The notes under the pieces were generated by a model that was not told where the DNA came from, did not search any database, and was given only the letters and a program-made list of their open reading frames with translations. Shown here piece by piece: positions 4,012 through 19,351 of a DNA stretch of 58,120 nt; positions within the stretch are counted from its first letter, which is position 1, and each line of letters opens with the position of its first letter. The translations under genes and the position numbers were made by a program. The DNA is from an uncultured Flavobacteriales bacterium (lineage in GTDB: Bacteria; Bacteroidota; Bacteroidia; Flavobacteriales_D; CAJJDF01), in assembly GCA_938009745.1 (NCBI GenBank), contig CALLII010000058.1, forward strand, positions 1 to 58,120, given 5' to 3'.

Positions 4012-5319
4012 ATGAAGTTTATTATAATTATAGTAATTGTTTTGGTAATCATAGCTGCTGCTCAGCTTATGAAAGTATACGAGCTGTCGTCTAGATTGAG
4101 AAATAAAGATGAAGCAGATGTAACACCTGCGGAAACAAAATTTAATGCTGGAATGTTATTGTTATTCTATATAGCATTAATGATTTCTAGTACTTGGTTG
4201 TTTTTCCACTACGGAGCAAGACCAGGTTTAGGAGCTTCAGCTTCTGAATATGGAGTTGACATTGACTTTTTATATGATGTCAATTGGCTAATAATATTGA
4301 TAGTATTTTATATTACTCAATCCTTATTATTTTTATTCGCTTTTAAGTACCAACAGAAAAAAGGAAGAAAAGCTGTTTTCTTTGCTCACTCTACAAAGTT
4401 AGAGTTACTATGGACTATTATTCCAGCAGTAGTATTAGCAGGTATTATTATTGGAGGACTTTCAGTTTGGAATAAAATAACCACTCCAAAAGAAAATGCA
4501 ACAGTAATTGAAATTTATGCCCAACAGTTTGGATGGACAGTAAGATATGCTGGAGAAGATAATACTCTAGGAAATTCAGATTTTAAGGTAATACATGAAA
4601 CTACAAATCCTCTAGGAGTTGTTACTACTAAATTGATTAATGCTAAAGAAAAAGCATGGACTAGAGAAATTGATTCATTAACAGTATACTTAGATGAAAA
4701 CGGAGATTTAACTCCAGATGCTACTGTAGATGAAATTGAAGATAAAATTGAAAGATTAGGAAGACAGATTAGAAGACTTGATCCATTAAGAAAGTCTCAA
4801 ACTGCAGAAACTAATGCAGCTGCAACTGATGACGTAATCGTAAAAGAACTTCACCTAGTTAAAGGTGTTGATTATGAATTCAAATTTAGATCAAGAGATG
4901 TAATTCACTCAGCATTATTTCCTCACTTTAGAGCGCAAATGAATTGTGTGCCGGGTATGACAACTAGGTTTTCTTTTAAACCAATTATTACTACAGCAGA
5001 AATGAGAGCAATGCCAGATGTTGCAAAACAATACAAAGAAATAAGTGAGAACAGAGTGGCAGAAGGTAGAGAGCCAGTAGAATTCGATTACTTATTATTA
5101 TGTAACAAAATTTGTGGTTCTTCTCACTATAACATGCAAATTAAAATTGTTGTCGAAACTCAAGAAGAGTTTGATGTATGGTATGCAAAACAAAGTGAAA
5201 GTAAAACTTTTGAAATGTTAGCAGGTCTAGGAACAACAGTTGCTAATGAAGAGAGTATTGATACTAATGTTGCAGCTATTGATACAGTAAATGTAATTAC
5301 TGAGCCAGTAGCACAGTAA
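4012..5319 (+). CDS. coxB: Cytochrome c oxidase subunit II (CuA subunit, no fused cytochrome c domain)
   Basis: N-terminal TM helices plus a cupredoxin domain. CuA ligands are present: DVIHSALFPHF and CNKICGSSHYNM (C-x3-C-x3-H-x2-M). No CXXCH motif. Confidence 0.9.
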   Translation: MKFIIIIVIVLVIIAAAQLMKVYELSSRLRNKDEADVTPAETKFNAGMLLLFYIALMISSTWLFFHYGARPGLGASASEYGVDIDFLYDVNWLIILIVFYITQSLLFLFAFKYQQKKGRKAVFFAHSTKLELLWTIIPAVVLAGIIIGGLSVWNKITTPKENATVIEIYAQQFGWTVRYAGEDNTLGNSDFKVIHETTNPLGVVTTKLINAKEKAWTREIDSLTVYLDENGDLTPDATVDEIEDKIERLGRQIRRLDPLRKSQTAETNAAATDDVIVKELHLVKGVDYEFKFRSRDVIHSALFPHFRAQMNCVPGMTTRFSFKPIITTAEMRAMPDVAKQYKEISENRVAEGREPVEFDYLLLCNKICGSSHYNMQIKIVVETQEEFDVWYAKQSESKTFEMLAGLGTTVANEESIDTNVAAIDTVNVITEPVAQ

Positions 5320-5371
5320 TAGTAAGGTTAATCAATTTTAGAATTTTAGATAAAACAATATAAAGAGAGAA

Positions 5372-7147
5372 ATGGGAGCACACACACACGAAGAAGGACA
5401 CCACCACCACGAAAGTTTTATTACTAAATACATTTTTAGTCAAGATCATAAGATGATTTCTAAGCAGTTTTTGTTAACTGCAATGTTCATGGGGATTATT
5501 GCTGTTATATTATCTGTACTTTTTAGATTACAAATAGCTTGGCCAAACGAACAGTTTGAAGCAATGAAATTCTTTTTGGGAGATAGTTATTTAACTTCTG
5601 AAGGATTATTAAAGCCAGATAGATACTTAGCTATTGTTACTATTCACGGTACTATTATGGTATTCTTTGTATTAACAGGAGGACTGAGTGGAACATTTAG
5701 TAATTTACTTATTCCATTACAAGTTGGAGCAAGAGATATGGCTTCAGGATTTTTGAACATGTTATCTTTTTGGTTATTCTTATTATCTAGTATAATAATG
5801 ACTTACTCATTAATGGTAGAAAGTGGACCTGCCTCTTCTGGTTGGACGGTTTATCCACCACTAAGTATCTTAGAACAAGCAATACCAGGTTCGGGATTAG
5901 GAATGACTTTATGGTTATTAAGTATGACTTTGTTTATTGCCTCTTCTTTATTAGGAGCACTTAACTACATTGTTACAATCATTAACTTAAGAACTATTGG
6001 AATGAAAATGACAAGATTGCCACTTACTATTTGGGCATTCTTTGTAACGGCTATTTTAGGTGTACTTTCTTTTCCAGTATTAGTATCAGCTGTATTGTTG
6101 TTATTAATGGATAAAACATTTGGAACAAGTTTCTACTTATCTGATATCTTTATTGGAGGAGAAGCATTAGATGCATCTGGAGGTTCACCAATATTATACC
6201 AACACTTATTTTGGTTCTTAGGTCACCCAGAAGTATACATTGTACTACTGCCAGCATTAGGTATTACCTCTGAAATTGTATCAACTAACTCACGTAAGCC
6301 AATTTTTGGTTATCGTGCAATGATTGGTTCTATTTTAGCAATTGGTTTCCTTTCGTTTATCGTTTGGGGTCACCATATGTTTATTACAGGAATGAACCCA
6401 TTCATTGGAGGAATCTTTGTATTCACAACATTATTGATTGCAATACCATCTGCAGTAAAGGCCTTTAACTACATTACTACATTGTGGAAAGGAAATATCC
6501 GTTACACACCAGCAATGTTATTCTCTATTGGATTAGTATCTACATTTATCACTGGAGGATTAACAGGAATTATTCTTGCTGATGCAACACTTGATATTCC
6601 AGTTCACGATACTTACTTTGTTGTAGCTCACTTCCACATTGTGATGGGACTATCAGCTATTTTCGGGATGTTTGCAGGAGTTTATCATTGGTTCCCTAAA
6701 ATGTATGGTAAGATGATGAACAAGAAGCTAGGGTACGCTCACTTTTGGTTAACGTTAATTGGAGGATACGGAGTATTTTTCCCAATGCACTTTGTTGGAT
6801 TAGCAGGAGCACCAAGAAGATATTACGCAAACACAGAATTTGCATTTTTGGATCACGTTCAAGATTTAAATGAGGTGATTACTATTTTCGCAATTATTGG
6901 AGGATTGGCACAAATCTTATTCTTCTACAATTTCTTTTATAGTATTTACAATGGAAGAAAAACAACTCAAAACCCTTGGAAATCGAATACATTGGAGTGG
7001 ACAACTCCAGTAGAGATGGGACATGGAAACTGGCCTGGTGCTTTACCAGTAGTTCACAGATGGCCTTACGATTACAGTAATCCAGAACATGAAGAGGATT
7101 TTGTACCGCAAACAACTCCACTTAAAGAAGGAGAACATTCTCACTAG
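5372..7147 (+). CDS. coxA: Cytochrome c oxidase subunit I (heme-copper oxidase catalytic subunit)
   Basis: 591 aa and 12 or more TM helices. Hallmark motifs are LFWFLGHPEVYI, VWGHHMF and HDTYFVVAHFH. The N-terminus MGAHTHEEGHHHHE and the C-terminus EGEHSH are His-rich. Confidence 0.95.
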   Translation: MGAHTHEEGHHHHESFITKYIFSQDHKMISKQFLLTAMFMGIIAVILSVLFRLQIAWPNEQFEAMKFFLGDSYLTSEGLLKPDRYLAIVTIHGTIMVFFVLTGGLSGTFSNLLIPLQVGARDMASGFLNMLSFWLFLLSSIIMTYSLMVESGPASSGWTVYPPLSILEQAIPGSGLGMTLWLLSMTLFIASSLLGALNYIVTIINLRTIGMKMTRLPLTIWAFFVTAILGVLSFPVLVSAVLLLLMDKTFGTSFYLSDIFIGGEALDASGGSPILYQHLFWFLGHPEVYIVLLPALGITSEIVSTNSRKPIFGYRAMIGSILAIGFLSFIVWGHHMFITGMNPFIGGIFVFTTLLIAIPSAVKAFNYITTLWKGNIRYTPAMLFSIGLVSTFITGGLTGIILADATLDIPVHDTYFVVAHFHIVMGLSAIFGMFAGVYHWFPKMYGKMMNKKLGYAHFWLTLIGGYGVFFPMHFVGLAGAPRRYYANTEFAFLDHVQDLNEVITIFAIIGGLAQILFFYNFFYSIYNGRKTTQNPWKSNTLEWTTPVEMGHGNWPGALPVVHRWPYDYSNPEHEEDFVPQTTPLKEGEHSH

Positions 7148-7170
7148 ATACTAAACAGTTAGTTTAAAAA

Positions 7171-7197
7171 GCCATTCCTAAAGGAGTGGCTTTTTTT
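7171..7197 (+). terminator. Rho-independent terminator after coxA
   Basis: Hairpin gccattcc-taaa-ggagtggc (one G-U pair) followed by a T-run. Confidence 0.7.
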
Positions 7198-7211
7198 GTT
7201 TTTTAGAGTAG

Positions 7212-7237
7212 GGGGTATTTCATTTTAGATTGTCATA
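7212..7237 (+). promoter_or_regulatory. Candidate ECF-sigma-type promoter or shared regulatory motif, copy 1 (GGGGTATTTC-N8-TTGTCATA)
   Basis: Ends 21 nt upstream of the ATG at 7259. The same two blocks recur at 10328-10354. Confidence 0.4.
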
Positions 7238-7258: not shown

Positions 7259-9619
7259 ATGAAAAAAAGGACGCTATTTAATCTAGGACTATTTATTCTA
7301 TTACAAGTTAATTTAATAGGACAAAACCTAACCCAAGTTGTAAAAGGACAAATAATTGACAAAGACACAAGAGTAACAATAATTGGAGCTAATGTAATTA
7401 TTGTTAATTCGAATCCTTTATTGGGAGCAAGTACAAATTTGGATGGGTATTTTACAATAAGCGAAGTGCCAGTAGGTAGAGTTTCTGTAAAAATTACTGC
7501 TGTAGGATACGAAACTCAAGTAATACCCAATTTAGTAATTGAATCAGGGAAAGAGACAAACCTAAATATTCAATTAATCGAATCATACCAGAAACTTGAT
7601 GAAGTAGAAATAACTAGCGATAATGAAAATGGGGGTGCTAACAATGAAATGGCAATAGTAAGTTCAAAGCTATTAACTACTGAGGCAACTGGAAGATATG
7701 CTGGTTCATTAAATGATCCTGCCCGAATGGTAACTGCTTTTGCTGGAGTTGTTGGTAATCCATCTGGGGATAATGATATTGTCGTTAGAGGAAACTCGCC
7801 TAGAGGAATTCTATGGAGATTAGAAGGAGTAGAAATACCAAATCCAAATCACTTTGGTACAGAAGGTTCATCTGGAGGTCCAGTAAATACATTAAATGGA
7901 GCAATGCTTGCTAATTCAGATTTTTTCTCGGGAGCATTCGCACCAGAATATGGGAATGCTATTTCGGGAGTTTTTGATTCAAAATTTAGAACTGGGAATC
8001 ATGAAAAAAGAGAGTATTCTTTTTCGGTTGGTGTTCTTGGTTTAGATGCTACTATGGAAGGGCCATTTTCTAAAAATTATAATGGATCGTATTTAGTCAA
8101 TTTCAGATATTCATCTCTTGATTTATTAGACCAAACTGGAGTTATAGATTTTGATGGAGTTCCAAAATACTATGATGGATCATTTAAATTTAATTTGCCT
8201 ACTAAGTCTATGGGAAACTTTGTCGCTTTTGGATTATTCGGAAGAAGCTCAATAAAACAAGAATCGGAGACAAGTGATGAAAATGGAGAAAATACAATTA
8301 TTAATGAAAAAGTTGATTTTGGTGCAGGAATGTCTGTTTTTGGATTAAAACATTTCTATAGCTTGAGTAAAAAGACATATATCAAGTCATACGTTAGTTT
8401 ATCTAATGCTTTTAATGCAGTAGATGTAGATGAATTAGATACTATTTCTAATTCTTTTTATAAGGTGTATAATGATAACATAAACGAGAACCATTTAAGA
8501 GTTTCAACCTCATACAATACTAAGTTTAGTGCTAAAAACACTTTAAATGTAGGAGTTATTTATACTCAATCCTACTTTGATATGAAAGCTGTTTTTACTG
8601 ATGTAGATGGCTTATCAGAAACATTTATAGATGATAAAGGGAATGGAGGAATTGTACAAGCATTTGGTTCTTGGAAATACAGGCTAAAGGAAAATGTAAC
8701 ATTTGTTGGAGGAATGCATTACACTCAATTACTATTTAATAATAAGAATTCTATTGAACCAAGAATGGGGTTAAGATGGAATCTTAACGAGAGACAATAT
8801 TTAACATTTGGAACTGGACTTCACAGTAAAGTAGAAAACTCTTCGGTTTATTTTGCTAATACAAGTGATGACGATTCTAAAATTGAGAATGCAAATAAGA
8901 ATTTAGAGCTTACAAAATCAAGTCATTTTGTAATTGGATATGGACATCAATTGAATGAAAATATATCTTTAAAATCTGAAGTGTATTTTCAGTATTTATA
9001 TGATGTGCCGGTTAATGCGGATATTACTAACAGATTTTCTTTAATTAACTCGACTGGTGGATATCCAAATTCAAAAATGATATCTAAAGGAACAGGAAAG
9101 AATTATGGTGTTGAGTTAACTTTAGAAAGATCTTTTACCAAAGGATATTACTACATGGTTACTGGTTCGCTTTACGAATCAAAGTTTACACCACTTGATG
9201 GGATTGAATATAACTCGAGATTTAATGCAAATTATGCGGGGAATATTTTATTCGGAAGAGAATTTAAACTTAAATCAAAAAAGAAAAATAAAACACTTGC
9301 ATTGAACCTTAAAGCAACACTAATCGGAGGAAATAGATATACTCCAATTGATTTGGCTGGTTCAATAGCTGCAGATGATGAAGTGTATTTTTTATATAGA
9401 TATAACGAAAGTAAGTTTGATGATATATTCGTTATGAATTTTGCTTTGATTTATAGAGTTAATAAAAAGAAAACGACTCATGAATTTAAGATTGATATTC
9501 AGAATGTGACCAATAATAATGCTGCTGTAGATTATTACTATGATGAGGAAAGTCAAACAATAGAATCGAATACTCAGTTATCAATTTTACCAAACATTGT
9601 ATACGTTATTAAGTTTTAG
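7259..9619 (+). CDS. TonB-dependent receptor with an N-terminal carboxypeptidase-regulatory-like domain (no STN extension)
   Basis: Signal peptide, then a CarbopepD_reg-like segment (VKGQIIDKDTRVTIIGANVII...GYFTISEVPVGRVSVKITAVGYE). Plug-like region DPARMVTAFAGVV...DIVVRGNSPRGILWRLEGVEIPNPNHF. Long beta-rich C-terminus ending YVIKF. Confidence 0.85.
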   Translation: MKKRTLFNLGLFILLQVNLIGQNLTQVVKGQIIDKDTRVTIIGANVIIVNSNPLLGASTNLDGYFTISEVPVGRVSVKITAVGYETQVIPNLVIESGKETNLNIQLIESYQKLDEVEITSDNENGGANNEMAIVSSKLLTTEATGRYAGSLNDPARMVTAFAGVVGNPSGDNDIVVRGNSPRGILWRLEGVEIPNPNHFGTEGSSGGPVNTLNGAMLANSDFFSGAFAPEYGNAISGVFDSKFRTGNHEKREYSFSVGVLGLDATMEGPFSKNYNGSYLVNFRYSSLDLLDQTGVIDFDGVPKYYDGSFKFNLPTKSMGNFVAFGLFGRSSIKQESETSDENGENTIINEKVDFGAGMSVFGLKHFYSLSKKTYIKSYVSLSNAFNAVDVDELDTISNSFYKVYNDNINENHLRVSTSYNTKFSAKNTLNVGVIYTQSYFDMKAVFTDVDGLSETFIDDKGNGGIVQAFGSWKYRLKENVTFVGGMHYTQLLFNNKNSIEPRMGLRWNLNERQYLTFGTGLHSKVENSSVYFANTSDDDSKIENANKNLELTKSSHFVIGYGHQLNENISLKSEVYFQYLYDVPVNADITNRFSLINSTGGYPNSKMISKGTGKNYGVELTLERSFTKGYYYMVTGSLYESKFTPLDGIEYNSRFNANYAGNILFGREFKLKSKKKNKTLALNLKATLIGGNRYTPIDLAGSIAADDEVYFLYRYNESKFDDIFVMNFALIYRVNKKKTTHEFKIDIQNVTNNNAAVDYYYDEESQTIESNTQLSILPNIVYVIKF

Positions 9620-9649
9620 ATAAAACGGAATTGTATTTTTCTAAATTTA

Positions 9650-9683
9650 AACCACACCAATTTTAATTGATGTGGTTTTTTTT
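9650..9683 (+). terminator. Rho-independent terminator after the TonB-dependent receptor gene
   Basis: accaca...tgtggt stem followed by T8. Confidence 0.7.
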
Positions 9684-9741
9684 CTTTCCAAAATGAATTT
9701 TAGGAGACCTCTATTATATTTAGTATTTTAGACTTCTCAAA

Positions 9742-10323
9742 ATGTACAACCAAACAGACATATTAGAAGGACTAAAGAATAAAGACGAAAAGGCTTTTGA
9801 AGTACTTTTTAAGACTCATTATGAAGCTTTGGTCAGGTTTGTATACAAATACATGAACAATAGCGAAGAGGCTGAGGAAATTGTTCAGGATACATTTTAC
9901 ACCTTGTGGGAGAAATCAGAGAAAATTTCCATTCAATCGAGTATAAAATCATACTTATACCAAGCCGCAAGAAACAAATCGCTAAACACAATTAAGCATA
10001 AAAACGTACAACTAAAATATGCGAATACAGTTCTGTATAATTCTACCGAAGCAATAGAGGATGATGAATCTATTGAATTGGATGAACTTCAGGATAAAAT
10101 AAATCAATCATTAGATTTATTACCACCAAAGTGTCGAAAGGTTTTTGAGCTAAGTAGATTCGAAGAAAAGAAATATAAAGAAATTGCTGAAGAGCTCGAT
10201 ATTTCTATAAAAACAGTAGAAAACCATATGGGAAAAGCCTTAGGTATTCTTAGAACTTCTTTGAAAGAATACTTGCCAATTTATTTAGCTCTTTTGTTAG
10301 CTGAAATAATATCTGAAGGATAG
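9742..10323 (+). CDS. ECF-type RNA polymerase sigma-70 factor (Bacteroidota FecI-like family)
   Basis: 193 aa. Region 2 (EEAEEIVQDTFYTLWEK) and region 4 HTH (YKEIAEELDISIKTVENHMGKAL). Followed by a FecR gene. Confidence 0.9.
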   Translation: MYNQTDILEGLKNKDEKAFEVLFKTHYEALVRFVYKYMNNSEEAEEIVQDTFYTLWEKSEKISIQSSIKSYLYQAARNKSLNTIKHKNVQLKYANTVLYNSTEAIEDDESIELDELQDKINQSLDLLPPKCRKVFELSRFEEKKYKEIAEELDISIKTVENHMGKALGILRTSLKEYLPIYLALLLAEIISEG

Positions 10324-10327
10324 ACTA

Positions 10328-10354
10328 GGGGTATTTCGTAATTAGGTTGTCATA
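10328..10354 (+). promoter_or_regulatory. Candidate ECF-sigma-type promoter or shared regulatory motif, copy 2 (GGGGTATTTC-N9-TTGTCATA)
   Basis: Lies in the 45-nt sigma-fecR gap, ending 14 nt upstream of the ATG at 10369. Both blocks are identical to those at 7212-7237. Confidence 0.4.
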
Positions 10355-10368
10355 GAAATAGAGAAACT

Positions 10369-11376
10369 ATGGATAATCAATCAGAACATAATTTAAGTGA
10401 CTTGCTTTTGGCAAAATACATTAGCGGAGAAGCTAGTGCAGATGAGCTATTGCAAGTCGACAACTGGAGAAAAATTTCTGAGGAAAATGAAAATTATTTC
10501 CAAGAATTAAATCTTGTTTGGTTCGATACAGGTATTATTAATACTGAATCTAACGAGCCAAAGAATATTAATGTTGATGGTGCATGGAATAAAATGCAAA
10601 AAAGAGTTCAGTCATCAACTAAAGTTATTCCTAAACAATCACCAAGTATAAATTGGAAATATGCGTTAAGAATTGCTGCTGTTGTATTAGTAGTAATTGG
10701 TGGAACTTGGTTATTCAGACAAGACAATAATTCAGTAATTGAAAAGCAATTATTAGCATCTAATGAAATTGTTAATTATAGTTTGAGTGATTCATCTAAG
10801 ATTGTATTGAATAAAAACTCGCAATTAACCTATCCAGAAAAATTTAATGAAAACGAACGAAGGGTAAAGCTTAAAGGAGAAGCTCATTTTAAAATTGAGC
10901 CTAACAAAGAGAAGCCGTTTGTAATTGAGGTAAATAAAGCTATTGTAAAAGTTTTGGGGACTTCTTTTGTTGTAAAAGAAGAAGGAGATTCTGCAATTAG
11001 AGTAGGAGTAGAGAGTGGTAAAGTTCAGTTTGGTTATGAGGATGAGCAAGTTATTTTGACAAAAGGAATGTCAGCAGTGCTGGACTTAAGAACAGGAGAA
11101 ATAACTCAAGATGAAGAAGCTAAAGTGAATTTGGGTTCTTGGAAAAGTAAAAAATTATCATTCAGAAGTACACAACTTTCCGAAGTTGTGGAATCGCTAA
11201 ATGAACTATACCCACAAGAAATAGTGATACAGAACAAAGCAATAAATGATTGCTTGTTGTCTGCCACATTTGATAATGAAGACTTAGAAGTTGTATTGAT
11301 GATTATCGAATCAACTTTTGGTTTTGAAATAGAACGAACAAATAACGTAATTATAATAAAAGGGGATGGCTGCTAA
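10369..11376 (+). CDS. FecR-family transmembrane anti-sigma factor / signal transducer
   Basis: N-terminal anti-sigma segment, a single TM helix (ALRIAAVVLVVIGGTWLF), a FecR-like periplasmic domain and a C-terminal DUF4974-like segment (LSFRSTQLSEVVESLNELY...). Overlaps the next gene by 11 nt. Confidence 0.9.
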   Translation: MDNQSEHNLSDLLLAKYISGEASADELLQVDNWRKISEENENYFQELNLVWFDTGIINTESNEPKNINVDGAWNKMQKRVQSSTKVIPKQSPSINWKYALRIAAVVLVVIGGTWLFRQDNNSVIEKQLLASNEIVNYSLSDSSKIVLNKNSQLTYPEKFNENERRVKLKGEAHFKIEPNKEKPFVIEVNKAIVKVLGTSFVVKEEGDSAIRVGVESGKVQFGYEDEQVILTKGMSAVLDLRTGEITQDEEAKVNLGSWKSKKLSFRSTQLSEVVESLNELYPQEIVIQNKAINDCLLSATFDNEDLEVVLMIIESTFGFEIERTNNVIIIKGDGC

Positions 11377-13375
11377 ATACTACTTGGTTTTACTATTTTT
11401 TTTGGTGCTAACTACTGGATTTTCTCAAAATCCTTTAGATAAAAGGCTTAGCATTAAAGTAGAGAACGAAACCACAGGAGTAGTTTTAGAAAAAATTCAA
11501 ATTTTAGGAGGGTTTTATTTTTCCTATAATTCTAAGTTGATTGATGTAAACAAGCTGGTTACTTATACTGCTTATAACGAGCAAGTAATTGATTTGTTAA
11601 ACGGAATTTTTGGTAAAAAATACGAGTACAAACACAGAGGGAGTTACATTATAATTCAAGAAGCCAAACCAGTTTTGGTAAAGAAGAAGGAAGTAGTTTT
11701 TAAAGGAAAAGTATCTAGTTCTGTGGATAGCTCTCAGCTCCAAAACGTAACGATTTACGAAATAGACGAATTAAAATCTACTTCTACGGATGAAAATGGA
11801 GATTTTGATTTAGTAATATCTACCGAAAAAGTAGAATCAAAAGTATTGATTGTAAAAGAGAATTATTACGATACAATCATTAGTTCAGCCGACCTTGCTG
11901 ATACTAATCTTAAAATATTCTTACGCCCTTTAATCGATAGTATTAAATCAAAATTTACCTACAAATTAGACTCAACCTTTTGGACAAAGACATTCGACAC
12001 CAAAAAGGTGAAAGATGTAATGGATAATGTGAGTCTAACAGAGTTTAAAGATTTTCAATTGTCACTGTTGCCTTACATAGGAACAAATGGTAAGTTTAGT
12101 GGAAAAATAACCAATAAATTTTCTTTGAATCTTTTGGGAGGATATGCCTATGGATTAAATGGATTGGAGATTGGAGGAATATTTAATATTCTGAAAGATA
12201 CAATGAGAGGAGCTCAGATAGCTGGTGTTGGAAATGTGGTTGGAGGAAAAACAACTGGAGCTCAATTTGCAGGAGTTTTTAATGTAAATTATGGAGATGT
12301 TATTGGTGCTCAGTTTGGAGGAGTTTTCAATACAACAGCCCAAACATTAAAAGGTGTTCAAGCAGCTGGTGTATTTAATACTGCAAATAATATTGAGGAT
12401 GGAACACAGATTGGAGGAGTTTTTAATCGAACAAAGGACATTAAAAATGGAGTCCAAATAGGTGGAGTATTTAATAAAAGTCAAAGCATAGAGAACGGAA
12501 CCCAAATAGGAGGAGTGTTTAATAAAGCAAAAGATATTAAAAACGGAGTTCAAATAGGCGGAGTATTTAATAAAAGTCAGAGCATAGATAACGGAACCCA
12601 AATAGGAGGAGTGTTTAATAAAGCAAAGAATATATACAATGGCTTACAAGTAAGTGGGGTTTTTAATACATCTAAAAATTTGACTTACGGATTGCAAATT
12701 AGTGGGATTTATAACATCTCCAAAGACATTAAAATAGGAGGGCAAATAGGAGGGTTATTTAACTTCAGTAAAAATATTGAGGATGGATTTCAAGTTTCGA
12801 GTTTGCTAAACTGTGCAAAGAGTGTTACTGGATTTCAGATTGGTTTAATTAATTTATCCGATTCTATTTCTAGAGGAATTCCTATTGGTTTTTTAAGTTT
12901 TGTAAAATCTGGATTTCATAAAACGGAACTTTCTTACCAAGATTATTTATCTGCCGGTATTTCTTTTAGAACGGGAGTTCATGCGTTTTATAATATTTTT
13001 GCTTTTAATTATTACTACCAAGATAACAATCCATTGGCAAGTTTTGGATATGGTATTGGAACACAGTTTAATATTAATGAACGATTTTTTACTAACCTAG
13101 AATTAAGCTCTCATTCCTTATTTGTTGCAAATGATTTGCAATCGGCCTTCAATGAATTGAATGTATTAACCAAGCTTAATCTAAACCTTGGGTTTAATGT
13201 TGGCAAACACTTATCCTTAGTGGCTGGTCCCGAATTAAATATATTAATTTCAGACAATTCGAGTTCTATTTCTAAGCTAGATAATTTCTCTAAACGTAAT
13301 TCAATTTACCGTGTAAGTAATAATCAAACAGAACTAAATATGACTCTTGGATATAGAGTTGCATTGAGGTTTTAG
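11366..13375 (+). CDS. Secreted STN-like + CarbopepD_reg-like protein with about 15 tandem 16-aa GxQxGGVFN repeats and a C-terminal beta-barrel-like region (function unknown; no TonB plug recognised)
   Basis: Signal peptide. STN-like LSIKVENETTGVVLEKIQ..FYFSYNSKLID..YEYKHRGSYIIIQ. VFKGKVSS..NVTIYEIDELKSTSTDENGDFDLVI. Repeat array at aa 266-503. Ends LGYRVALRF. Translationally coupled to fecR. Confidence 0.7.
   Translation: MAAKYYLVLLFFLVLTTGFSQNPLDKRLSIKVENETTGVVLEKIQILGGFYFSYNSKLIDVNKLVTYTAYNEQVIDLLNGIFGKKYEYKHRGSYIIIQEAKPVLVKKKEVVFKGKVSSSVDSSQLQNVTIYEIDELKSTSTDENGDFDLVISTEKVESKVLIVKENYYDTIISSADLADTNLKIFLRPLIDSIKSKFTYKLDSTFWTKTFDTKKVKDVMDNVSLTEFKDFQLSLLPYIGTNGKFSGKITNKFSLNLLGGYAYGLNGLEIGGIFNILKDTMRGAQIAGVGNVVGGKTTGAQFAGVFNVNYGDVIGAQFGGVFNTTAQTLKGVQAAGVFNTANNIEDGTQIGGVFNRTKDIKNGVQIGGVFNKSQSIENGTQIGGVFNKAKDIKNGVQIGGVFNKSQSIDNGTQIGGVFNKAKNIYNGLQVSGVFNTSKNLTYGLQISGIYNISKDIKIGGQIGGLFNFSKNIEDGFQVSSLLNCAKSVTGFQIGLINLSDSISRGIPIGFLSFVKSGFHKTELSYQDYLSAGISFRTGVHAFYNIFAFNYYYQDNNPLASFGYGIGTQFNINERFFTNLELSSHSLFVANDLQSAFNELNVLTKLNLNLGFNVGKHLSLVAGPELNILISDNSSSISKLDNFSKRNSIYRVSNNQTELNMTLGYRVALRF
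12161..12874 (+). repeat. In-frame tandem 48-bp (16-aa) coding repeats, about 15 units, including a near-identical 96-bp duplication (12449-12544 versus 12545-12640)
   Basis: Units run GLEIGGIFNILKDTMR / GAQIAGVGN... / GVQIGGVFNKSQSIEN / GTQIGGVFNKAKDIKN and so on. The two 96-bp double units differ at only a few positions over their first ~80 nt. Confidence 0.9.
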
Positions 13376-13377
13376 AT

Positions 13378-15480
13378 TTAAGAAATCCTCCCCCAATTAG
13401 GTTTGAGCTTAATCAAATAAGCTAACCTTTGTCTTACCAAATAATTTTCTTGGAGGGATAAATCAGGATCTTGTTTTAAGAGCTCTGTAGCCATATTTCT
13501 GGCTGCAACCACAATGTTGTTATCTTTTATCAAATCACCCAGCTTAAGGTCTAAAATACCACTCTGTTGAGTTCCTAGTATATCTCCTGGCCCTCTAAGT
13601 TTCAAATCTTCTTCGGCAATTTCAAAACCATCATTTGTTCTTACCATGGTTTCAATTCTGGTTTTGGCTGTGGGCGAAAGTTTATAGTCTGTCATCAACA
13701 CACAATAGGATTTATCCGAGCCTCTTCCAACTCTTCCTCTAAGCTGATGTAATTGAGATAATCCAAATTTATTGGCGCTTTCAATTACCATAACGGTAGC
13801 ATTAGGAACATTTACACCCACCTCAATTACAGTAGTTGCTACCATAATATTAGTGAACCCTTTTGCAAATTGCTGCATTTCGTATTCCTTGTCTTTGGCT
13901 TTCATTTTACCATGTACAATACTTAGTTTGTAATTTGGCAAAGGAAACCTGCGAGCCATGCTTTCGTAGCCATCCATCAAATCTTTAAAATCCAGATGTT
14001 CCGATTCTTCAATTAATGGATACACCACATACACTTGCCTTCCTTCGGCAATTTGCTTTTCCATAAACTTAAACACATACAAACGGTCTTTGTCAAATTT
14101 GTGGGTGGTAGAAATTTCCTTTCTTCCTGGTGGTAGTTCATCAATAACCGAAATATCCAAATCTCCATAAACTGTCATTGCCAAAGTTCTAGGAATAGGA
14201 GTAGCCGTCATCACCAAAATATGTGGAGGAATATTGTTTTTTTTCCAAAGCTTACTTCTTTGTTTAACTCCAAACCTGTGTTGCTCGTCAATAATGGCAA
14301 GTCCCAAGTTTTTGAATTGAACAATATCTTCGAGCAAAGCGTGAGTTCCAATAAGTAAATCCAATTCGCCAGAGAGTAATTGCTCGTGAATTACTGTTCG
14401 TTCCGATTTTTTGGAAGAGCCAGTTAGCAAAGCAACAGTAACTTCAGTTCCTTCCAAATATCCAGAAATAGTAGCGTAGTGCTGAATGGCTAAAATTTCG
14501 GTTGGAGCCATCAATAAAGATTGAAATCCATTGTCTTTGGCAATAAGCATTGCAAGTAAACCAACAAGAGTTTTTCCCGAACCAACATCACCTTGCAGCA
14601 ATCGGTTCATGTGTTTTCCTGAGCCTACATCCGCTCGTATTTCTTTTACTACACGCTTTTGCGCATTGGTAAGTTCAAATGGGAGTTTGGTAGTAAAAAA
14701 CTGATTAAAGCTAGCGCCTACTTTTTCGAACACAAAACCTTTCAGCTTTTGTTCTTGAATTATCTTTTGTTTTAATAATCTCAGTTGAAGAAAAAAGAAT
14801 TCTTCAAACTTTAATCTAAAAATGGCTTTCTTCAATAAATCAGCACTTTGTGGGTGATGAATTTCTCGGTAAGCTCTTTCTCTTGGCATTAGTTTCAATT
14901 CCTGAATAAGAGATTGAGGAAGAGTTTCGGGAATTTGATTTCTTATTCCAGAAACTAGAGTTTTGGTCAGTTTTTCAATTCCTTTGGAATTAAGCCCAGT
15001 GGCATTTGCCAAATCTGTAGAACTATAAACTGGTTGCAAATTAGCAACAATATCTGCAGCAGTTGGTTTTTCCTCCAAATCGGGATGCACCAAATTAAAC
15101 GAACCATTAAACTCAGAAGGCTTACCAAACACAATAAACTCCTTGCCAATAATTAATTTTGGCTTTATCCATTTAGCTCCTTTAAACCAAATAAGTTCCA
15201 TTACACCAGTATCGTCTTGTAGGTAGGCAATAAGTCGTTTTCCTCCTTTTGTTCCTGCTTCTTTTACATTGCTTATTTTTCCTTTAAGCTGCACATAACT
15301 TTCATCCGATTTTACTTCACTTATTTTGTGAACTTTGGAGCGATCTATATATCTAAAAGGAAAGTGAGTAAGTAAATGGTCGTAAGTAAAAATTCGTAAT
15401 TCTTTCTTTAAAATTTCCGCACGCTTAGGACCAACACCCTTAAGGTATTCGATAGATGTGGAAAGAAAAGAATTAGTCAT
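13378..15480 (-). CDS. recG: ATP-dependent DNA helicase RecG
   Basis: 700 aa. Wedge/OB N-terminus. Walker A GDVGSGKT, DEQHRFG (DEAH-type) and QLRGRVGRG motifs. Confidence 0.95.
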   Translation of the reverse strand: MTNSFLSTSIEYLKGVGPKRAEILKKELRIFTYDHLLTHFPFRYIDRSKVHKISEVKSDESYVQLKGKISNVKEAGTKGGKRLIAYLQDDTGVMELIWFKGAKWIKPKLIIGKEFIVFGKPSEFNGSFNLVHPDLEEKPTAADIVANLQPVYSSTDLANATGLNSKGIEKLTKTLVSGIRNQIPETLPQSLIQELKLMPRERAYREIHHPQSADLLKKAIFRLKFEEFFFLQLRLLKQKIIQEQKLKGFVFEKVGASFNQFFTTKLPFELTNAQKRVVKEIRADVGSGKHMNRLLQGDVGSGKTLVGLLAMLIAKDNGFQSLLMAPTEILAIQHYATISGYLEGTEVTVALLTGSSKKSERTVIHEQLLSGELDLLIGTHALLEDIVQFKNLGLAIIDEQHRFGVKQRSKLWKKNNIPPHILVMTATPIPRTLAMTVYGDLDISVIDELPPGRKEISTTHKFDKDRLYVFKFMEKQIAEGRQVYVVYPLIEESEHLDFKDLMDGYESMARRFPLPNYKLSIVHGKMKAKDKEYEMQQFAKGFTNIMVATTVIEVGVNVPNATVMVIESANKFGLSQLHQLRGRVGRGSDKSYCVLMTDYKLSPTAKTRIETMVRTNDGFEIAEEDLKLRGPGDILGTQQSGILDLKLGDLIKDNNIVVAARNMATELLKQDPDLSLQENYLVRQRLAYLIKLKPNWGRIS

Positions 15481-15575: not shown

Positions 15576-16148
15576 TTATCTGTTTTGCATAATTGGTGTA
15601 GTTGGTGTTGGAGTTGTTCCTGTTCCAACTGTAGTAGGTGCACTAGCTTTTTTGATTTGAGCTATAACTAAATCAGTTACATCAATACCACCATCAAAAT
15701 AAACAAGAGCTCCTTGTTGAGTAATGTCAAAGATGTAAGCAAATCCATTTTCTTTTGCAACTATATCAATAGCATCTTTTATTTGTTTCAATAAAGGAGC
15801 CATAAGGTCTTGTTGTTTTTGTTGAATTCTTTGTTGAGTTTCAGCTCCAAATTCTTGTAGCTTTTGCTCATCACTTTGTAATTCTCTTTCTCTTGATGCT
15901 TTAATTGCTGGTAGCAAGGCATCTTTTTCAGAAAGATACTTTTGATAATCATTTTGAATGATAGTTTGTAAATCCAAATATTGCTTTTCTTTTTCCTTTT
16001 GGTACCTTTCCATTTCATCACTTGATGCTTGAAAACCTGGCACTTGAGCAAGAATTTTTTGTGCGTCTATATGTCCTATTTTTTGTGCGTTTGCTGTTCC
16101 TGTTAAACTTAAAACTGCTACTGCTAATATTGCTATTAATTTTTTCAT
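15576..16148 (-). CDS. OmpH/Skp-family periplasmic chaperone
   Basis: Signal peptide, a coiled-coil Q/E/K-rich body and a C-terminal T/P-rich tail. Located downstream of bamA. Confidence 0.85.
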   Translation of the reverse strand: MKKLIAILAVAVLSLTGTANAQKIGHIDAQKILAQVPGFQASSDEMERYQKEKEKQYLDLQTIIQNDYQKYLSEKDALLPAIKASRERELQSDEQKLQEFGAETQQRIQQKQQDLMAPLLKQIKDAIDIVAKENGFAYIFDITQQGALVYFDGGIDVTDLVIAQIKKASAPTTVGTGTTPTPTTPIMQNR

Positions 16149-16192
16149 TGTGTAATTGTTGTCTTGTTATTTATTAAATTTAATTGTTGTGA

Positions 16193-16702
16193 TTAATATC
16201 CTAAGTTTTTAAGTATTCGTTTACTCTTATCGTTTTTAGGATCTGCGTATAAAATGTTACTTGAGTTAGCTTTATCAAAAATAAAGTCGTAGTTACCTAC
16301 AGATGCTAACTCTTTAATAGCAGCATATACTTTGTTTTGAATTGGCTCTACTAATTCTTTTCTTTTTTGAAAAATTTCGCCTTCAACTCCAAATTTTTCT
16401 TGTTGAAACTTAACCAGTTCATCTTCTAAAGCAAAAATTTCATCTTGCTTTTTCTTTTTCATTTCAGCTGGTAATAATAATTCTTCAGCTTGGTATTGCT
16501 GATATTTTTTATTGATCATAGCTTTTTTAGCTTCAAGCTCTTTCTGGTATTTTTCCGAGAGATCATCAATTGTTTTTTGTGCTGCGATATATTCAGGAAT
16601 ATTCTTCAGTATGTAATCTGTATCTACGTAAGCGAATTTTTGCGCAAATGATGCTAAAGCAAAAATTGTGGCTAATAATGTTAATGTTATTTTCTTTTTC
16701 AT
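16193..16702 (-). CDS. OmpH/Skp-family periplasmic chaperone (second paralogue)
   Basis: 169 aa. Signal peptide, FAYVDTDYILKNIPEY start and coiled-coil body. Tandem with the previous gene, as is usual in Bacteroidota. Confidence 0.85.
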   Translation of the reverse strand: MKKKITLTLLATIFALASFAQKFAYVDTDYILKNIPEYIAAQKTIDDLSEKYQKELEAKKAMINKKYQQYQAEELLLPAEMKKKKQDEIFALEDELVKFQQEKFGVEGEIFQKRKELVEPIQNKVYAAIKELASVGNYDFIFDKANSSNILYADPKNDKSKRILKNLGY

Positions 16703-16768
16703 GACTGCAAATTTAGGTTATAATATTTAATTAACGAAACTTGAAATTAGATGTTTCATGGTTTCGAT

Positions 16769-19351
16769 TTACAATTCTCCAATATTCATGCCAATCGTAA
16801 AATGAAACTGTCCTATTGGCGAAAAATTACCTGGTGCATGAAGCGCAGGACTATATCCGTCATCACCCGGAGATAAAGGATCTAAGCCCCAACCGTAATC
16901 TAATCCTATTAGCCCAAACATTGGTAAAAATAATCTAACACCTACTCCCACAGATTTTTTTACTTCAAAAGGATTGTAGTCCTCAAAACTTCCCCAAGAG
17001 TTACCTGCTTCACCAAATGCAAGTGCAAATACTGTAGCACTTGGGTTAAGTGAAATAGGATATCTTAATTCTACTTTGTATTTAGTAATAAGTGCATCTC
17101 CACCTGCACTGTTTATCGAATTGTCTTCGTAACCTCTAAGTGCAATGTACTCACGACCTGCTAGCCTAAATCCTGTTAATCCACTACCTCCATAAAAGAA
17201 TCTTTCAAAAGGAGAAATTCCTTTTTCTTTAGAAAAGCTATTAAGGAAACCAAATCCTACACTAGAGTGGAAAACAAATTTCTTTGCTGGTCCTAACGGA
17301 GTATACCATTTTGCTGAGAATTTAATTTTGTTGTACTCTACCCATTTAAATTTTTGTTGACTTGTTAAATCAGAATAATCGTCTCTTCCGTCAAACAAAG
17401 AATAAGGTGCAGTAGTTTTGAATGATATAGTAATTTCTGAACCACTTCTTGGATAAATTGGTTGATCAACCGAGTTTCTGGAAAGCGTAATTCCTAAACT
17501 AAGGTTATTTGCAAATCCATTATTAAACCCATCTAAAAGAGTGTAGTTTCTTAACGTATAATATTCGTACCCTAAGTTTGCGAATAATGTAAAAAAGTCA
17601 TCTGGGACTTTAAGTCTGGTTCCTAATCCTATTGAACCACCAACCACATCAAATATACTGTTCAATGGATCGTTTCTTCCTAAGTTTTGAGTTTTTTGTA
17701 AGGAGTAATAAGCATTCAAACTAAGAGATGTTGGTTTTTTTCCTCCAAACCAAGGCTCAGTAAATGAGAAGCTTAACGATTGAAAGAAGATATTGGCTGA
17801 ACCTCTTAAACTTAATCTTTGTCCATCTCCAGTAGGCAGTGGTGACCAAGAATCTTTATCAAAAATATTTCTTACAGAAAAATTTGTAAACGACAGTCCT
17901 AAGGAACCAACAAATTGTCTTCCTCCCCAACCACCAGATAATTCAACCTGGTCAGATGGTTTTTCAGCAACAGTATATTCAATATCTACAGTTCCATCAA
18001 CAGGATTAGGAATAGGATTAATTCCCATTCTTTCTGGATCAAAATACCCTAGGTTACTTAACTCTCTTTGCGAACGAATAATATCAGCTCTACTAAAAAT
18101 CATTCCCGGCTTTGTTCTAAGCTCTCTTCTAATTACATGATCGTTAGTCTTGGTGTTTCCATTGATAATGATTTTTCCAATACGAGCTATTTTACCTTCA
18201 TAAATGATGATATCAATATCAATAGAGTCGTTTTCTACTGTTTTTTCAATAGGAGTAATTTGGAAAAACAAGTGACCTTGATCCATGTATAAAGAACTAA
18301 TGTCCAACTCAGTTTGACTCATAAAAAGCTTAGACTCTAATATTGATTTGTTGTATTCGTCTCCTTTATCAATTCCTAAGATGGTGTCTAATCTCCCTGA
18401 ACTATATTTCGAGTTACCTACCCAGTTTATGTTTCTGAAATAATATTTATTTCCTTCAGAAATCGTCATTTTAATGTTGATAGAAGAAGGGTCATTAGTG
18501 TATATAGTATCAAATACAATTTTGGCATCTCTCATTGCCTTTGAATTATAAACTGCTATAATTCCGCTTTTTTCCGCTTCATAGCTTTCTTCAATAAACT
18601 TAGATCGCTTCCAAAACCTCCACCAAGTTCTTTCTTTGGTTTCTTTTAAGGTTCTTTTAATCTTCTTGTCAGACATTACTTGAGCTTCTTTTTTAATGAG
18701 GCTTAAAGGAAACTTTGTTTTTTCAATAGCTTCATTCCCTTCAATAATAATCTTGTTAATCTTAACTTTTTCTCCTTTATCAATGTTAATAACCAAAATT
18801 TCGGCATTGTTTACCGAAGTATCTGGTATACTAGTAATATTAACTTTAGTGTTTAGGTATCCTTTTTCTACAAAATAATCTTTGCAAGTAAATCTGGCTT
18901 TGTCTAGTAAGCTTTCGGTAATAAGTTTACCGCTATATAAATCTAAATTTTCCTTTAATGATTTAGCTTGCGAGTTAGATATTCCCTTTAGCTGATATCT
19001 GGACATTCTGCTCCTTTCTGTAAGAGTAATTCTTAGGAAAACAGTGCTTCCGATAAATCTATCAGCATAAATATTTATATCAGAAAAGTTATTTACTTCC
19101 CATAATTTTTTGATAGCTCCAGAGATATCTGAACCAGGAATAGTGATTTCACTTCCTCTTCTTAATCCTGAAAAAGATATAATTCTTTCTACATCTGTAA
19201 TAATAGCACCTTCTACTACAATTCCTCCAATTTCATATTTTTTTGGAGCTTGGTAGTCTACATTATTTTTACCAAAACTTAGGTTTCCCTGTCCAATTGC
19301 CGTAAATGACAAAAGGGTTATGAGTAAAAATGTATTTATAATAAATTTCAT
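16769..19351 (-). CDS. bamA: Outer membrane protein assembly factor BamA
   Basis: 860 aa. Signal peptide, repeated POTRA-like modules and a C-terminal Omp85 barrel ending FTIGMNIGEL. Neighbourhood is uppS-bamA-skp-skp. Confidence 0.9.
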   Translation of the reverse strand: MKFIINTFLLITLLSFTAIGQGNLSFGKNNVDYQAPKKYEIGGIVVEGAIITDVERIISFSGLRRGSEITIPGSDISGAIKKLWEVNNFSDINIYADRFIGSTVFLRITLTERSRMSRYQLKGISNSQAKSLKENLDLYSGKLITESLLDKARFTCKDYFVEKGYLNTKVNITSIPDTSVNNAEILVINIDKGEKVKINKIIIEGNEAIEKTKFPLSLIKKEAQVMSDKKIKRTLKETKERTWWRFWKRSKFIEESYEAEKSGIIAVYNSKAMRDAKIVFDTIYTNDPSSINIKMTISEGNKYYFRNINWVGNSKYSSGRLDTILGIDKGDEYNKSILESKLFMSQTELDISSLYMDQGHLFFQITPIEKTVENDSIDIDIIIYEGKIARIGKIIINGNTKTNDHVIRRELRTKPGMIFSRADIIRSQRELSNLGYFDPERMGINPIPNPVDGTVDIEYTVAEKPSDQVELSGGWGGRQFVGSLGLSFTNFSVRNIFDKDSWSPLPTGDGQRLSLRGSANIFFQSLSFSFTEPWFGGKKPTSLSLNAYYSLQKTQNLGRNDPLNSIFDVVGGSIGLGTRLKVPDDFFTLFANLGYEYYTLRNYTLLDGFNNGFANNLSLGITLSRNSVDQPIYPRSGSEITISFKTTAPYSLFDGRDDYSDLTSQQKFKWVEYNKIKFSAKWYTPLGPAKKFVFHSSVGFGFLNSFSKEKGISPFERFFYGGSGLTGFRLAGREYIALRGYEDNSINSAGGDALITKYKVELRYPISLNPSATVFALAFGEAGNSWGSFEDYNPFEVKKSVGVGVRLFLPMFGLIGLDYGWGLDPLSPGDDGYSPALHAPGNFSPIGQFHFTIGMNIGEL

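Follow-up and report, generated by a model that had tools for sequence, protein, structure and literature searches.

We analysed a 58-kb window of DNA (58,120 nucleotides; contig CALLII010000058.1 of an uncultured Flavobacteriales bacterium), in which four genes on the same strand span positions 7259-13375 and encode a 786-aa outer-membrane protein (OMP), an extracytoplasmic function (ECF) sigma factor, a FecR-type anti-sigma factor and a 669-aa protein. We call the last of these STNR, an outer-membrane protein composed of an STN domain, a domain termed the N-terminal extension (NTE), repeats and a barrel. The sigma/FecR/STNR arrangement is a conserved, phylum-wide and uncharacterised variant of cell-surface signalling with a predicted promoter and regulon. 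Computation gave the domain content of these proteins, a conserved gene order, and a promoter motif together with its positions. Our reading, to which we assign a probability of about 0.6, is that the three genes form a FecI/FecR-type signalling core in which FecR's partner in the outer membrane is a non-transporter, consisting of an STN-NTE head followed by repeats and a small barrel. Most likely, the 669-aa protein serves FecR as this partner, in a module that signals independently of transport. Positions given below are window coordinates, and all genes of the module are on the plus strand. The four open reading frames lie where an earlier prediction, made by a model from the sequence alone (the original prediction), had placed them, the start of the 669-aa gene overlapping the end of fecR by 11 nt.

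The sigma factor, FecR and STNR

The window carries both parts of a FecI/FecR system, a FecI-like sigma factor and a FecR protein with a transmembrane helix, a FecR domain, a Gly-Thr motif and a FecR_C domain. The sigma factor (9742-10323, +) belongs to the Bacteroidetes-type FecI-like group; it scores 178.9 bits on TIGR02985 (NCBIfam cut-off 126.4) and also matches Sigma70_r2 and r4_2, and its matches to the FecI models are below the cut-offs of those models. FecR (10369-11376, +) consists of an N-terminal anti-sigma region, a single hydrophobic span, read as the transmembrane helix, at aa ~97-117, a FecR domain (Pfam PF04773, 64.3 bits) and a C-terminal FecR_C domain, formerly DUF4974 (PF16344, 51.9 bits), which bears out the make-up originally proposed for it. 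The FecR domain contains the stretch VLGTSF, the Gly-Thr of which we take to be the self-cleavage site of FecR-type proteins. An autoproteolysis step of FecR has been described (PMC12036975), and the C-terminal subdomain of FecR-type proteins is known to have the STN fold and to bind the STN domain of the transducer (PMC7186176).

The N-terminus of STNR (11366-13375, +) resembles a signal peptide. The original prediction had read the sequence after it as an STN domain and a carboxypeptidase-regulatory-like sandwich, with no plug or large barrel to follow. A direct Pfam scan of STNR at E≤1 returned no STN, Plug or TonB_dep_Rec match, the sole match being a sub-threshold CarbopepD_reg_2, and a search of PDB sequences with STNR alone gave no useful match. 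Among 59 aligned family members (STNR and 58 relatives; E≤0.01), however, 45 match STN (PF07660) and all 59 match CarbopepD_reg_2 (PF13715), while none matches Plug (PF07715) or the TonB_dep_Rec barrel (PF00593). Five homologues were examined for where their STN match falls: it projects onto aa 50-99 of STNR, the stretch that the original prediction had singled out, and in four of the five it exceeds the gathering score. In addition, the N-terminus of STNR is co-linear with the STN and NTE domains of a fused transducer from another locus, L157 (see below), by BLASTP (E 1e-7), and hhalign of the STNR family profile against L157 pairs aa 27-172 of STNR with aa 43-196 of L157 (probability 97.9%, E 5e-13). 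Since the matches of the homologues map onto STNR and its head aligns with that of the fused protein, the STN assignment (aa 27-99; 11444-11662, +) stands, through the homologues and the fused transducer though not by a direct PF07660 match of the window protein; the claim that the protein is plug-less stands as well.

A confident alignment-based AlphaFold2 model of STNR (mean pLDDT 91, pTM 0.72) is consistent with this order. It begins with a signal helix, folds aa 27-99 as two beta-alpha-beta units and aa 108-186 as a beta-sandwich, and continues with short helices and then all-beta structure up to the C-terminal Phe, with no plug-like domain. The sandwich (11687-11923, +) has its best Foldseek match in 9hfj, the NTE domain of a SusC protein (target TM-score, TMt, 0.84), whose sequence is also matched by the STNR family profile (E 1e-7), confirming the carboxypeptidase-regulatory-like fold. 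Where SusC has its TonB box, in the linker that follows the NTE, the window protein reads LIDSIKS and some subgroups read LDSFVV or IDSIVI; we found no family-wide TonB-box motif there, as most members have ADSVGxK or nothing similar. FecR_C matches on relatives of STNR were considered as possible fusions and rejected as cross-matches on the STN fold. FecR and STNR are separate open reading frames, each with its own stop and start, in the window and in all 91 loci scored for both.

The middle of STNR is occupied by about 15 tandem 16-aa units, as had been predicted (aa ~249-504; 12110-12877, +). They are LA_2272-type repeats by sequence pattern, x-G-x-Q-I-G-G-V-F-N-x6 in STNR and G-x-Q-x-[GAS]-G-x-x-N in general form, and are modelled by AlphaFold2 as all-beta with pLDDT ~97. 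The strict number of repeats among relatives ranges from ~4 to 13, and STNR of the window is at the long end of the family's range. At the DNA level, a 96-nt unit (32 aa, or two repeats) recurs 2.8 times in tandem at 12367-12668 with 83-85% identity, pointing to a recent expansion of the array in this lineage. On the NCBIfam model NF047436, 'LA_2272 family surface repeat' (cut-off 25), relatives score 25.8-72.8 bits, whereas STNR of the window stays sub-threshold at 12.1 bits; the repeats of the family match the stand-alone VC2662 model (187 profile positions) only partially, with 23.5-34 bits against a cut-off of 140. No Pfam model matches the STNR repeat. An antisense 84-aa open reading frame within the repeat region (12347-12601, -) is repetitive too; most likely it merely mirrors the repeats, an artefact rather than a gene.

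The last ~155-165 residues (12878-13372, +) form an OMP-like domain of about eight amphipathic strands with alternating short and long connections, and the protein ends in LGYRVALRF, confirming the predicted OMP-like C-terminus with its terminal Phe. Foldseek matches were weak (query TM-score, TMq, ≤0.2, for the most part to barrels of 8-16 strands), but for this part all were outer-membrane barrels, mostly 8-stranded: OmpA, NspA (TMt 0.50), Opa60 (0.64-0.71), OprF-N (0.55), Ail and OmpX. They give no more than a weak hint of an 8-strand-like fold. Pfam OMP_b-brl_2 matched neither STNR nor its family, and the Pfam autotransporter model did not match STNR. A classical (type Va) autotransporter was also rejected on the ground that export of the N-terminus would take the STN domain out of the periplasm.

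The repeats might alternatively close together with the C-terminus into one large barrel; we rejected this, given the range of repeat numbers and the sub-threshold likeness to stand-alone VC2662. Covariation between neighbouring repeats consists of in-register couplings only (i to i+16), possibly a product of concerted evolution, with no antiparallel signature, and no two-repeat period was found across the family. Foldseek searches with the full STNR model and with aa 222-669 returned no global analogue and no solenoid matches. The in-register covariation, the absence of a two-repeat period, the variable repeat number and the sub-threshold VC2662 resemblance speak for a stack that is open-ended and against one large closed barrel. 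Bacterial outer-membrane barrels have both chain ends in the periplasm. As the STN-NTE head must also be periplasmic to meet FecR, the repeats are most likely periplasmic rather than surface-exposed. The originally proposed alternative, a surface sensor, is therefore doubtful on topological grounds, with a head that would lie in the periplasm and a C-terminus that would form a small even-stranded barrel.

Conservation of the arrangement and its promoter motif

A word-indexed protein search found at least 1379 homologues of STNR, and a profile of the repeats and barrel matched 9357 50%-identity clusters at E≤0.001 and 3557 at E≤1e-30. Gene neighbourhoods were surveyed by a locus scan of one genome per species with a 165-nt degenerate DNA pattern derived from the STNR family (~51 bits by calculation), which gave one match in each of five known loci used for validation. 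The scan listed at least 120 loci. Neighbours were scored by searching the six-frame open reading frames of these loci with the window proteins, and the counts below refer to the matches listed and, where stated, to those with enough flank.

Of the 79 loci whose upstream flank reaches 1 kb or more, 74 have a FecR homologue directly upstream of STNR on the same strand; of the 65 whose flank reaches 1.9 kb or more, 55 have a sigma factor homologue upstream. FecR and STNR are separated by a median of 3 nt, with an overlap in 40 of the 91 pairs. Such an arrangement goes far beyond what chance would give. The loci are nearly all from Bacteroidota, and the carriers include Pedobacter, Dyadobacter, Spirosoma, Larkinella, Chitinophagaceae, Niastella, Saprospiraceae, Cyclobacteriaceae, Flavobacteriales and Bacteroidales. 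The adjacency is, therefore, not idiosyncratic to this genome, and, as the linkage is conserved across Bacteroidota, none of the tests by which the original prediction proposed to refute itself does so. Some members of the family are on contigs binned as Synechococcus, Limnohabitans or Oscillatoria (loci L034, L053 and L077, and protein P0112); these contigs look mis-binned, because the distribution is otherwise restricted to Bacteroidota.

Genes of three other kinds are found repeatedly on the strand of the module, encoding homologues of the 786-aa transporter, short paralogues of STNR and a DUF2807/GIN protein. The short paralogue has only a signal peptide, repeats and the C-terminal domain, and scores 51 bits on NF047436. 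The DUF2807/GIN protein (~240 aa; PF10988, ~150 bits) is encoded downstream of STNR or of the transporter in 28 of the 120 loci, and no copy is present beside the module in the window. Examples are L079:6067-6786 and L026:3666-4514, and a match to the promoter motif described below is found just upstream in L079 and L106. In nine loci, mostly of Saprospiraceae type (L030, L035, L038, L048, L064, L065, L104, L114 and L115), the gene directly downstream of STNR encodes a protein of ~195 aa that has an OMP-like C-terminus and matches no Pfam model.

Alignment of upstream regions revealed a conserved ECF-type promoter motif, ATAGGGGTA-N-GTTGTCATA, ahead of module genes, with the aligned consensus ATAGGGGTAaa-N10-rgTTGTCaTA. 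A loose form of the pattern matched 108 times in 2.03 Mb, compared with 24 times in shuffles, and 82 of the 108 matches were within 200 nt upstream of module genes: 26 for sigma, 21 for the short paralogue, 19 for the transporter, 12 for fecR and 4 for STNR. Positions flanking the motif, to which the pattern was not anchored, are also conserved. The 58-kb window contains exactly two matches, both in this module. P1, TAGGGGGTA-N-ATTGTCATA (7210-7234, +), is 25 nt upstream of the ATG of the transporter gene, and 19 homologous transporter genes of other genomes have this motif in front of them too. P2, TAGGGGTA-N-GTTGTCATA (10327-10351, +), is in the spacer between sigma and fecR, 18 nt upstream of the fecR ATG; a further 11 loci, among them the closest relatives, L002 and L003, have the motif at this position. 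Since the only matches in the window precede the transporter gene and fecR, the transporter appears to be co-regulated with the module.

The transporter gene is flanked by terminator-like hairpins. One (7166-7195, +), with a 13-pair stem followed by a T run, closes the upstream cytochrome oxidase unit and sets the transporter gene apart from the cox genes; the other (9649-9686, +; -11.2 kcal/mol, z = -3.1) is 3' of the transporter gene and is followed by a U run. Together with the two motif sites, the hairpins lead us to predict two sigma-dependent units in the window, the transporter gene and fecR-STNR.

The surrounding genes are of other kinds. Cytochrome oxidase subunits II and I are encoded upstream of the module (4012-7147). 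Just downstream is an outer-membrane biogenesis cluster (15576-19351, -), with a BamA-like Omp85/POTRA gene and two OmpH/Skp genes. A RecG gene (13378-15480, -) is convergent with STNR, and 2 nt separate the stop codons.

Proposed mechanism and rival explanations

We propose that FecR would keep the sigma factor at the inner membrane, while its STN-fold C-terminal domain would bind the STN domain of STNR in the periplasm. This contact may shield FecR from proteolysis, as transducers do in Pseudomonas. A change in the state of STNR, for which the binding of a ligand or partner, a perturbation of the outer membrane or a failure of assembly are candidates, would then open FecR to regulated proteolysis and free the sigma factor. 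The free sigma factor would read the motif described above, its targets in the window being fecR-STNR (feedback) and the gene of the STN-less transporter (output). In other genomes its reach would extend to the short repeat-barrel paralogue and, at a few loci, to the start of the DUF2807 or another downstream gene. Stabilization of FecR by bound STNR would fit with the binding of the FecR C-terminus, itself of STN fold, to the STN domain of transducers (PMC7186176), and with the protection of the anti-sigma factor from proteolysis by Pseudomonas transducers when no signal is present (PMC11637429).

Several observations weigh against this reading. The predicted contact between FecR and STNR is drawn from gene order and domain homology only, and the STN domain of the window STNR is itself too diverged for Pfam. 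Canonical signalling needs TonB to pull on a TonB box (PMC12036975); STNR, with neither a plug nor a conserved TonB box, offers no evident source of energy for signalling. In some subgroups, a cryptic TonB box may lie in the D-S-[IV] or LDSFVV-like stretch that follows the NTE. A few members of the family, for example in Chitinophaga (L001 and L036), stand without sigma/FecR nearby.

The principal rival concerns the 786-aa protein (7259-9619, +). The original prediction had described it as a TonB-dependent receptor with a carboxypeptidase-regulatory domain, plug and barrel but no STN, and had suggested that the signalling domain and the transporter are split across two proteins. Its NTE (CarboxypepD_reg, 55 bits) was evident, and no STN match was found in it or in the ten STN-less relatives tested. 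The plug and barrel were less clear: Plug scored 19.5 bits in the window protein, below the threshold of 23.9, and of the ten relatives, which all match CarboxypepD_reg and Plug, only one matches the TonB_dep_Rec barrel (PF00593). After the NTE the window protein has a TonB-box-like LDEVEITS, the family consensus being EVVVxA. By these matches the family is a divergent TonB-dependent transporter.

Members of the transporter family also exist as fused transducers with STN and CarbopepD_reg domains, encoded directly behind sigma/FecR in L157:4772-7435 (887 aa) and L175:7629-10349 (906 aa). In L157, STN is at aa 66-116 and CarbopepD_reg at aa 134-225; the Plug model matches L157 only, not L175. 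Pfam coordinates place STN before the NTE in both proteins, whereas for SusC proteins the NTE has been stated to precede STN (Gray et al. 2021, PMC7782687). Another locus, L180:6163-12956, has sigma and FecR followed by two tandem genes of the transporter family (804 and 879 aa), neither of which matches STN; the second is extended at its N-terminus by ~115 aa without an assigned domain.

STNR and the transporter could, then, be a true split transducer, a single outer-membrane complex in which the STN domain of STNR, supplied in trans, relays substrate binding and TonB action on the transporter to FecR. The fused relatives L157 and L175 speak for such a complex, as do the promoter motif shared by both genes, the TonB-box-like EVVV/LDEVEITS of the transporter that STNR lacks, and the adjoining positions of the two genes in the window and in its closest relatives L002 and L003. 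Homologues of the transporter are present at 33 of the 120 loci, and in 20 of the 56 with enough downstream flank the gene is downstream on the same strand. The remaining 36, about two-thirds, have no transporter of this type immediately downstream. A transporter-centred metagenome scan gave 80 loci, about a quarter of which have STNR or FecR nearby; of the 72 with a scorable upstream region, 51 have no module within the available flanks (up to 8 kb). The motif precedes 8 of 21 module-linked transporter genes and 5 of the 51 unlinked ones, indicating that the transporter family is much broader than the module, and we rejected the idea that it is dedicated to it. As the genes adjoin at about a third of loci and most relatives of the transporter stand alone, a strict split transducer is only partly supported; co-regulation would be expected of any target gene and needs no physical complex. 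We consider the split transducer unlikely. The transporter is frequently an output of the module and may be a partner, but the module does not need it as one half of a split protein.

STNR might instead act alone as a TonB-dependent transducer without a plug, in which TonB pulls on a cryptic box after the NTE, as it does on FecA, and the repeats and barrel serve only as a ligand-gated anchor. The LDSFVV and IDSIVI stretches, and the LIDSIKS of the window, are where SusC has its box, and STN and NTE follow the same order as in the fused transducers, whose TonB box comes after the NTE. This stretch is not conserved in the family, and there is no plug to gate its exposure, which makes this explanation improbable. 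We give slightly less credence still to the possibility that STNR is merely a regulated structural protein of the outer membrane, a target of the sigma factor whose STN-NTE head is an evolutionary relic that receives no signal. The motif ahead of fecR-STNR does make STNR itself an output, as are the short paralogues, which have no STN or NTE, and the STN of the window copy has diverged. Against a relic, the STN is still recognizable in 45 of 59 members, its fold is confidently predicted in the window STNR, and the gene is almost always right behind fecR, often overlapping it, which is the position of the transducer gene in the fused loci.

Comparison with known systems

The preferred reading, a sigma/FecR core with a non-transporter partner, shares several features with the systems built on TonB-dependent transducers. 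FecA of E. coli, PupB/FoxA of Pseudomonas and the STN-bearing SusC-like transducers of ECF-controlled polysaccharide utilization loci all have, like STNR, an N-terminal STN domain encoded right after the sigma and FecR genes; the fused proteins of L157 and L175 share with STNR the order of STN and then a SusC-type NTE; and in the window, as in those systems, a sigma-dependent promoter is predicted ahead of the gene of a TonB-dependent transporter. In contrast to transducers, STNR has no plug, no 22-strand barrel and no conserved TonB box. Its body is made of LA_2272-type repeats and a small barrel, and the co-regulated transporter has no STN. Because the plug and barrel, two defining features, are absent, STNR should not be filed as a TonB-dependent transducer.

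By analogy, the nearest functional counterpart of the STNR/FecR module is the Dma family of Bacteroidota, whose members join an anti-sigma factor to a small barrel in the outer membrane (PMC10927553). Both are restricted to Bacteroidota and both would span the envelope by joining an ECF sigma/anti-sigma switch to a small barrel that is not a transporter, with a regulon of envelope proteins. Dma, however, is one polypeptide (anti-sigma region, transmembrane helix, disordered linker and OMP_b-brl_2 barrel), whereas FecR and STNR are separate; it works with an ECF21 sigma factor and has no FecR or STN domains, whereas here the contact would be between an STN domain and an STN fold. Tentatively, STNR and FecR may form a Bacteroidota-wide, transport-independent and possibly TonB-independent periplasmic tether, in which a small outer-membrane barrel would bear the LA_2272-type repeats in the periplasm and offer the STN domain to FecR. 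Such a tether would read how the outer membrane stands (its assembly or spacing, blebbing, or the binding of a partner) and not nutrient transport, and would be in effect a two-piece analogue of Dma assembled from transducer parts.

The LA_2272 and VC2662 families (NF047436 and NF047437) share with the STNR family the 16-aa repeat G-x-Q-x-x-G-x-x-N, with relatives above the NF047436 cut-off and the window copy below it. Their members, from Leptospira and Vibrio, are short lipoproteins or hypothetical proteins and are uncharacterised; for none has a link to STN, to NTE, to a C-terminal barrel or to sigma/FecR been described. Leptospira also has a FecI/FecR-like pair, LIC_12757/LIC_12756, in an organism whose TonB-dependent receptors have no N-terminal signalling extension (PMC12155086), so that a non-canonical outer-membrane partner would be expected. 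No partner of that pair has been identified.

Full-text searches found no paper characterizing the STNR family, in keeping with the original statement that no characterised example was known. Its traces in the literature are an architecture-based NCBI name and a table of differential expression in Parabacteroides. In that RNA-seq table, two genes whose locus tags are three apart, named 'STN and carboxypeptidase regulatory-like' and 'carboxypeptidase-like regulatory', are both down ~4-fold (PMC12893687). This spacing matches the order in the window: the transporter, two genes, then STNR. The genes were matched by annotation names only, and the table is no more than a hint in support of the module.

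In the literature, STN domains figure as the heads of TonB-dependent transporters or of secretins, and FecR-type signalling is usually explained by TonB pulling on the transporter. If our reading is correct, a large plug-less STN family fixed behind fecR would mean that the same signalling chemistry has been reused without transport, and would provide a test case for the release of an anti-sigma factor without a plug-gated TonB box. The predicted regulon motif makes this directly checkable. Bacteroidota have roughly 20 ECF sigma factors per genome, and modules of this kind could explain many of the 'orphan' sigma/FecR pairs among them.

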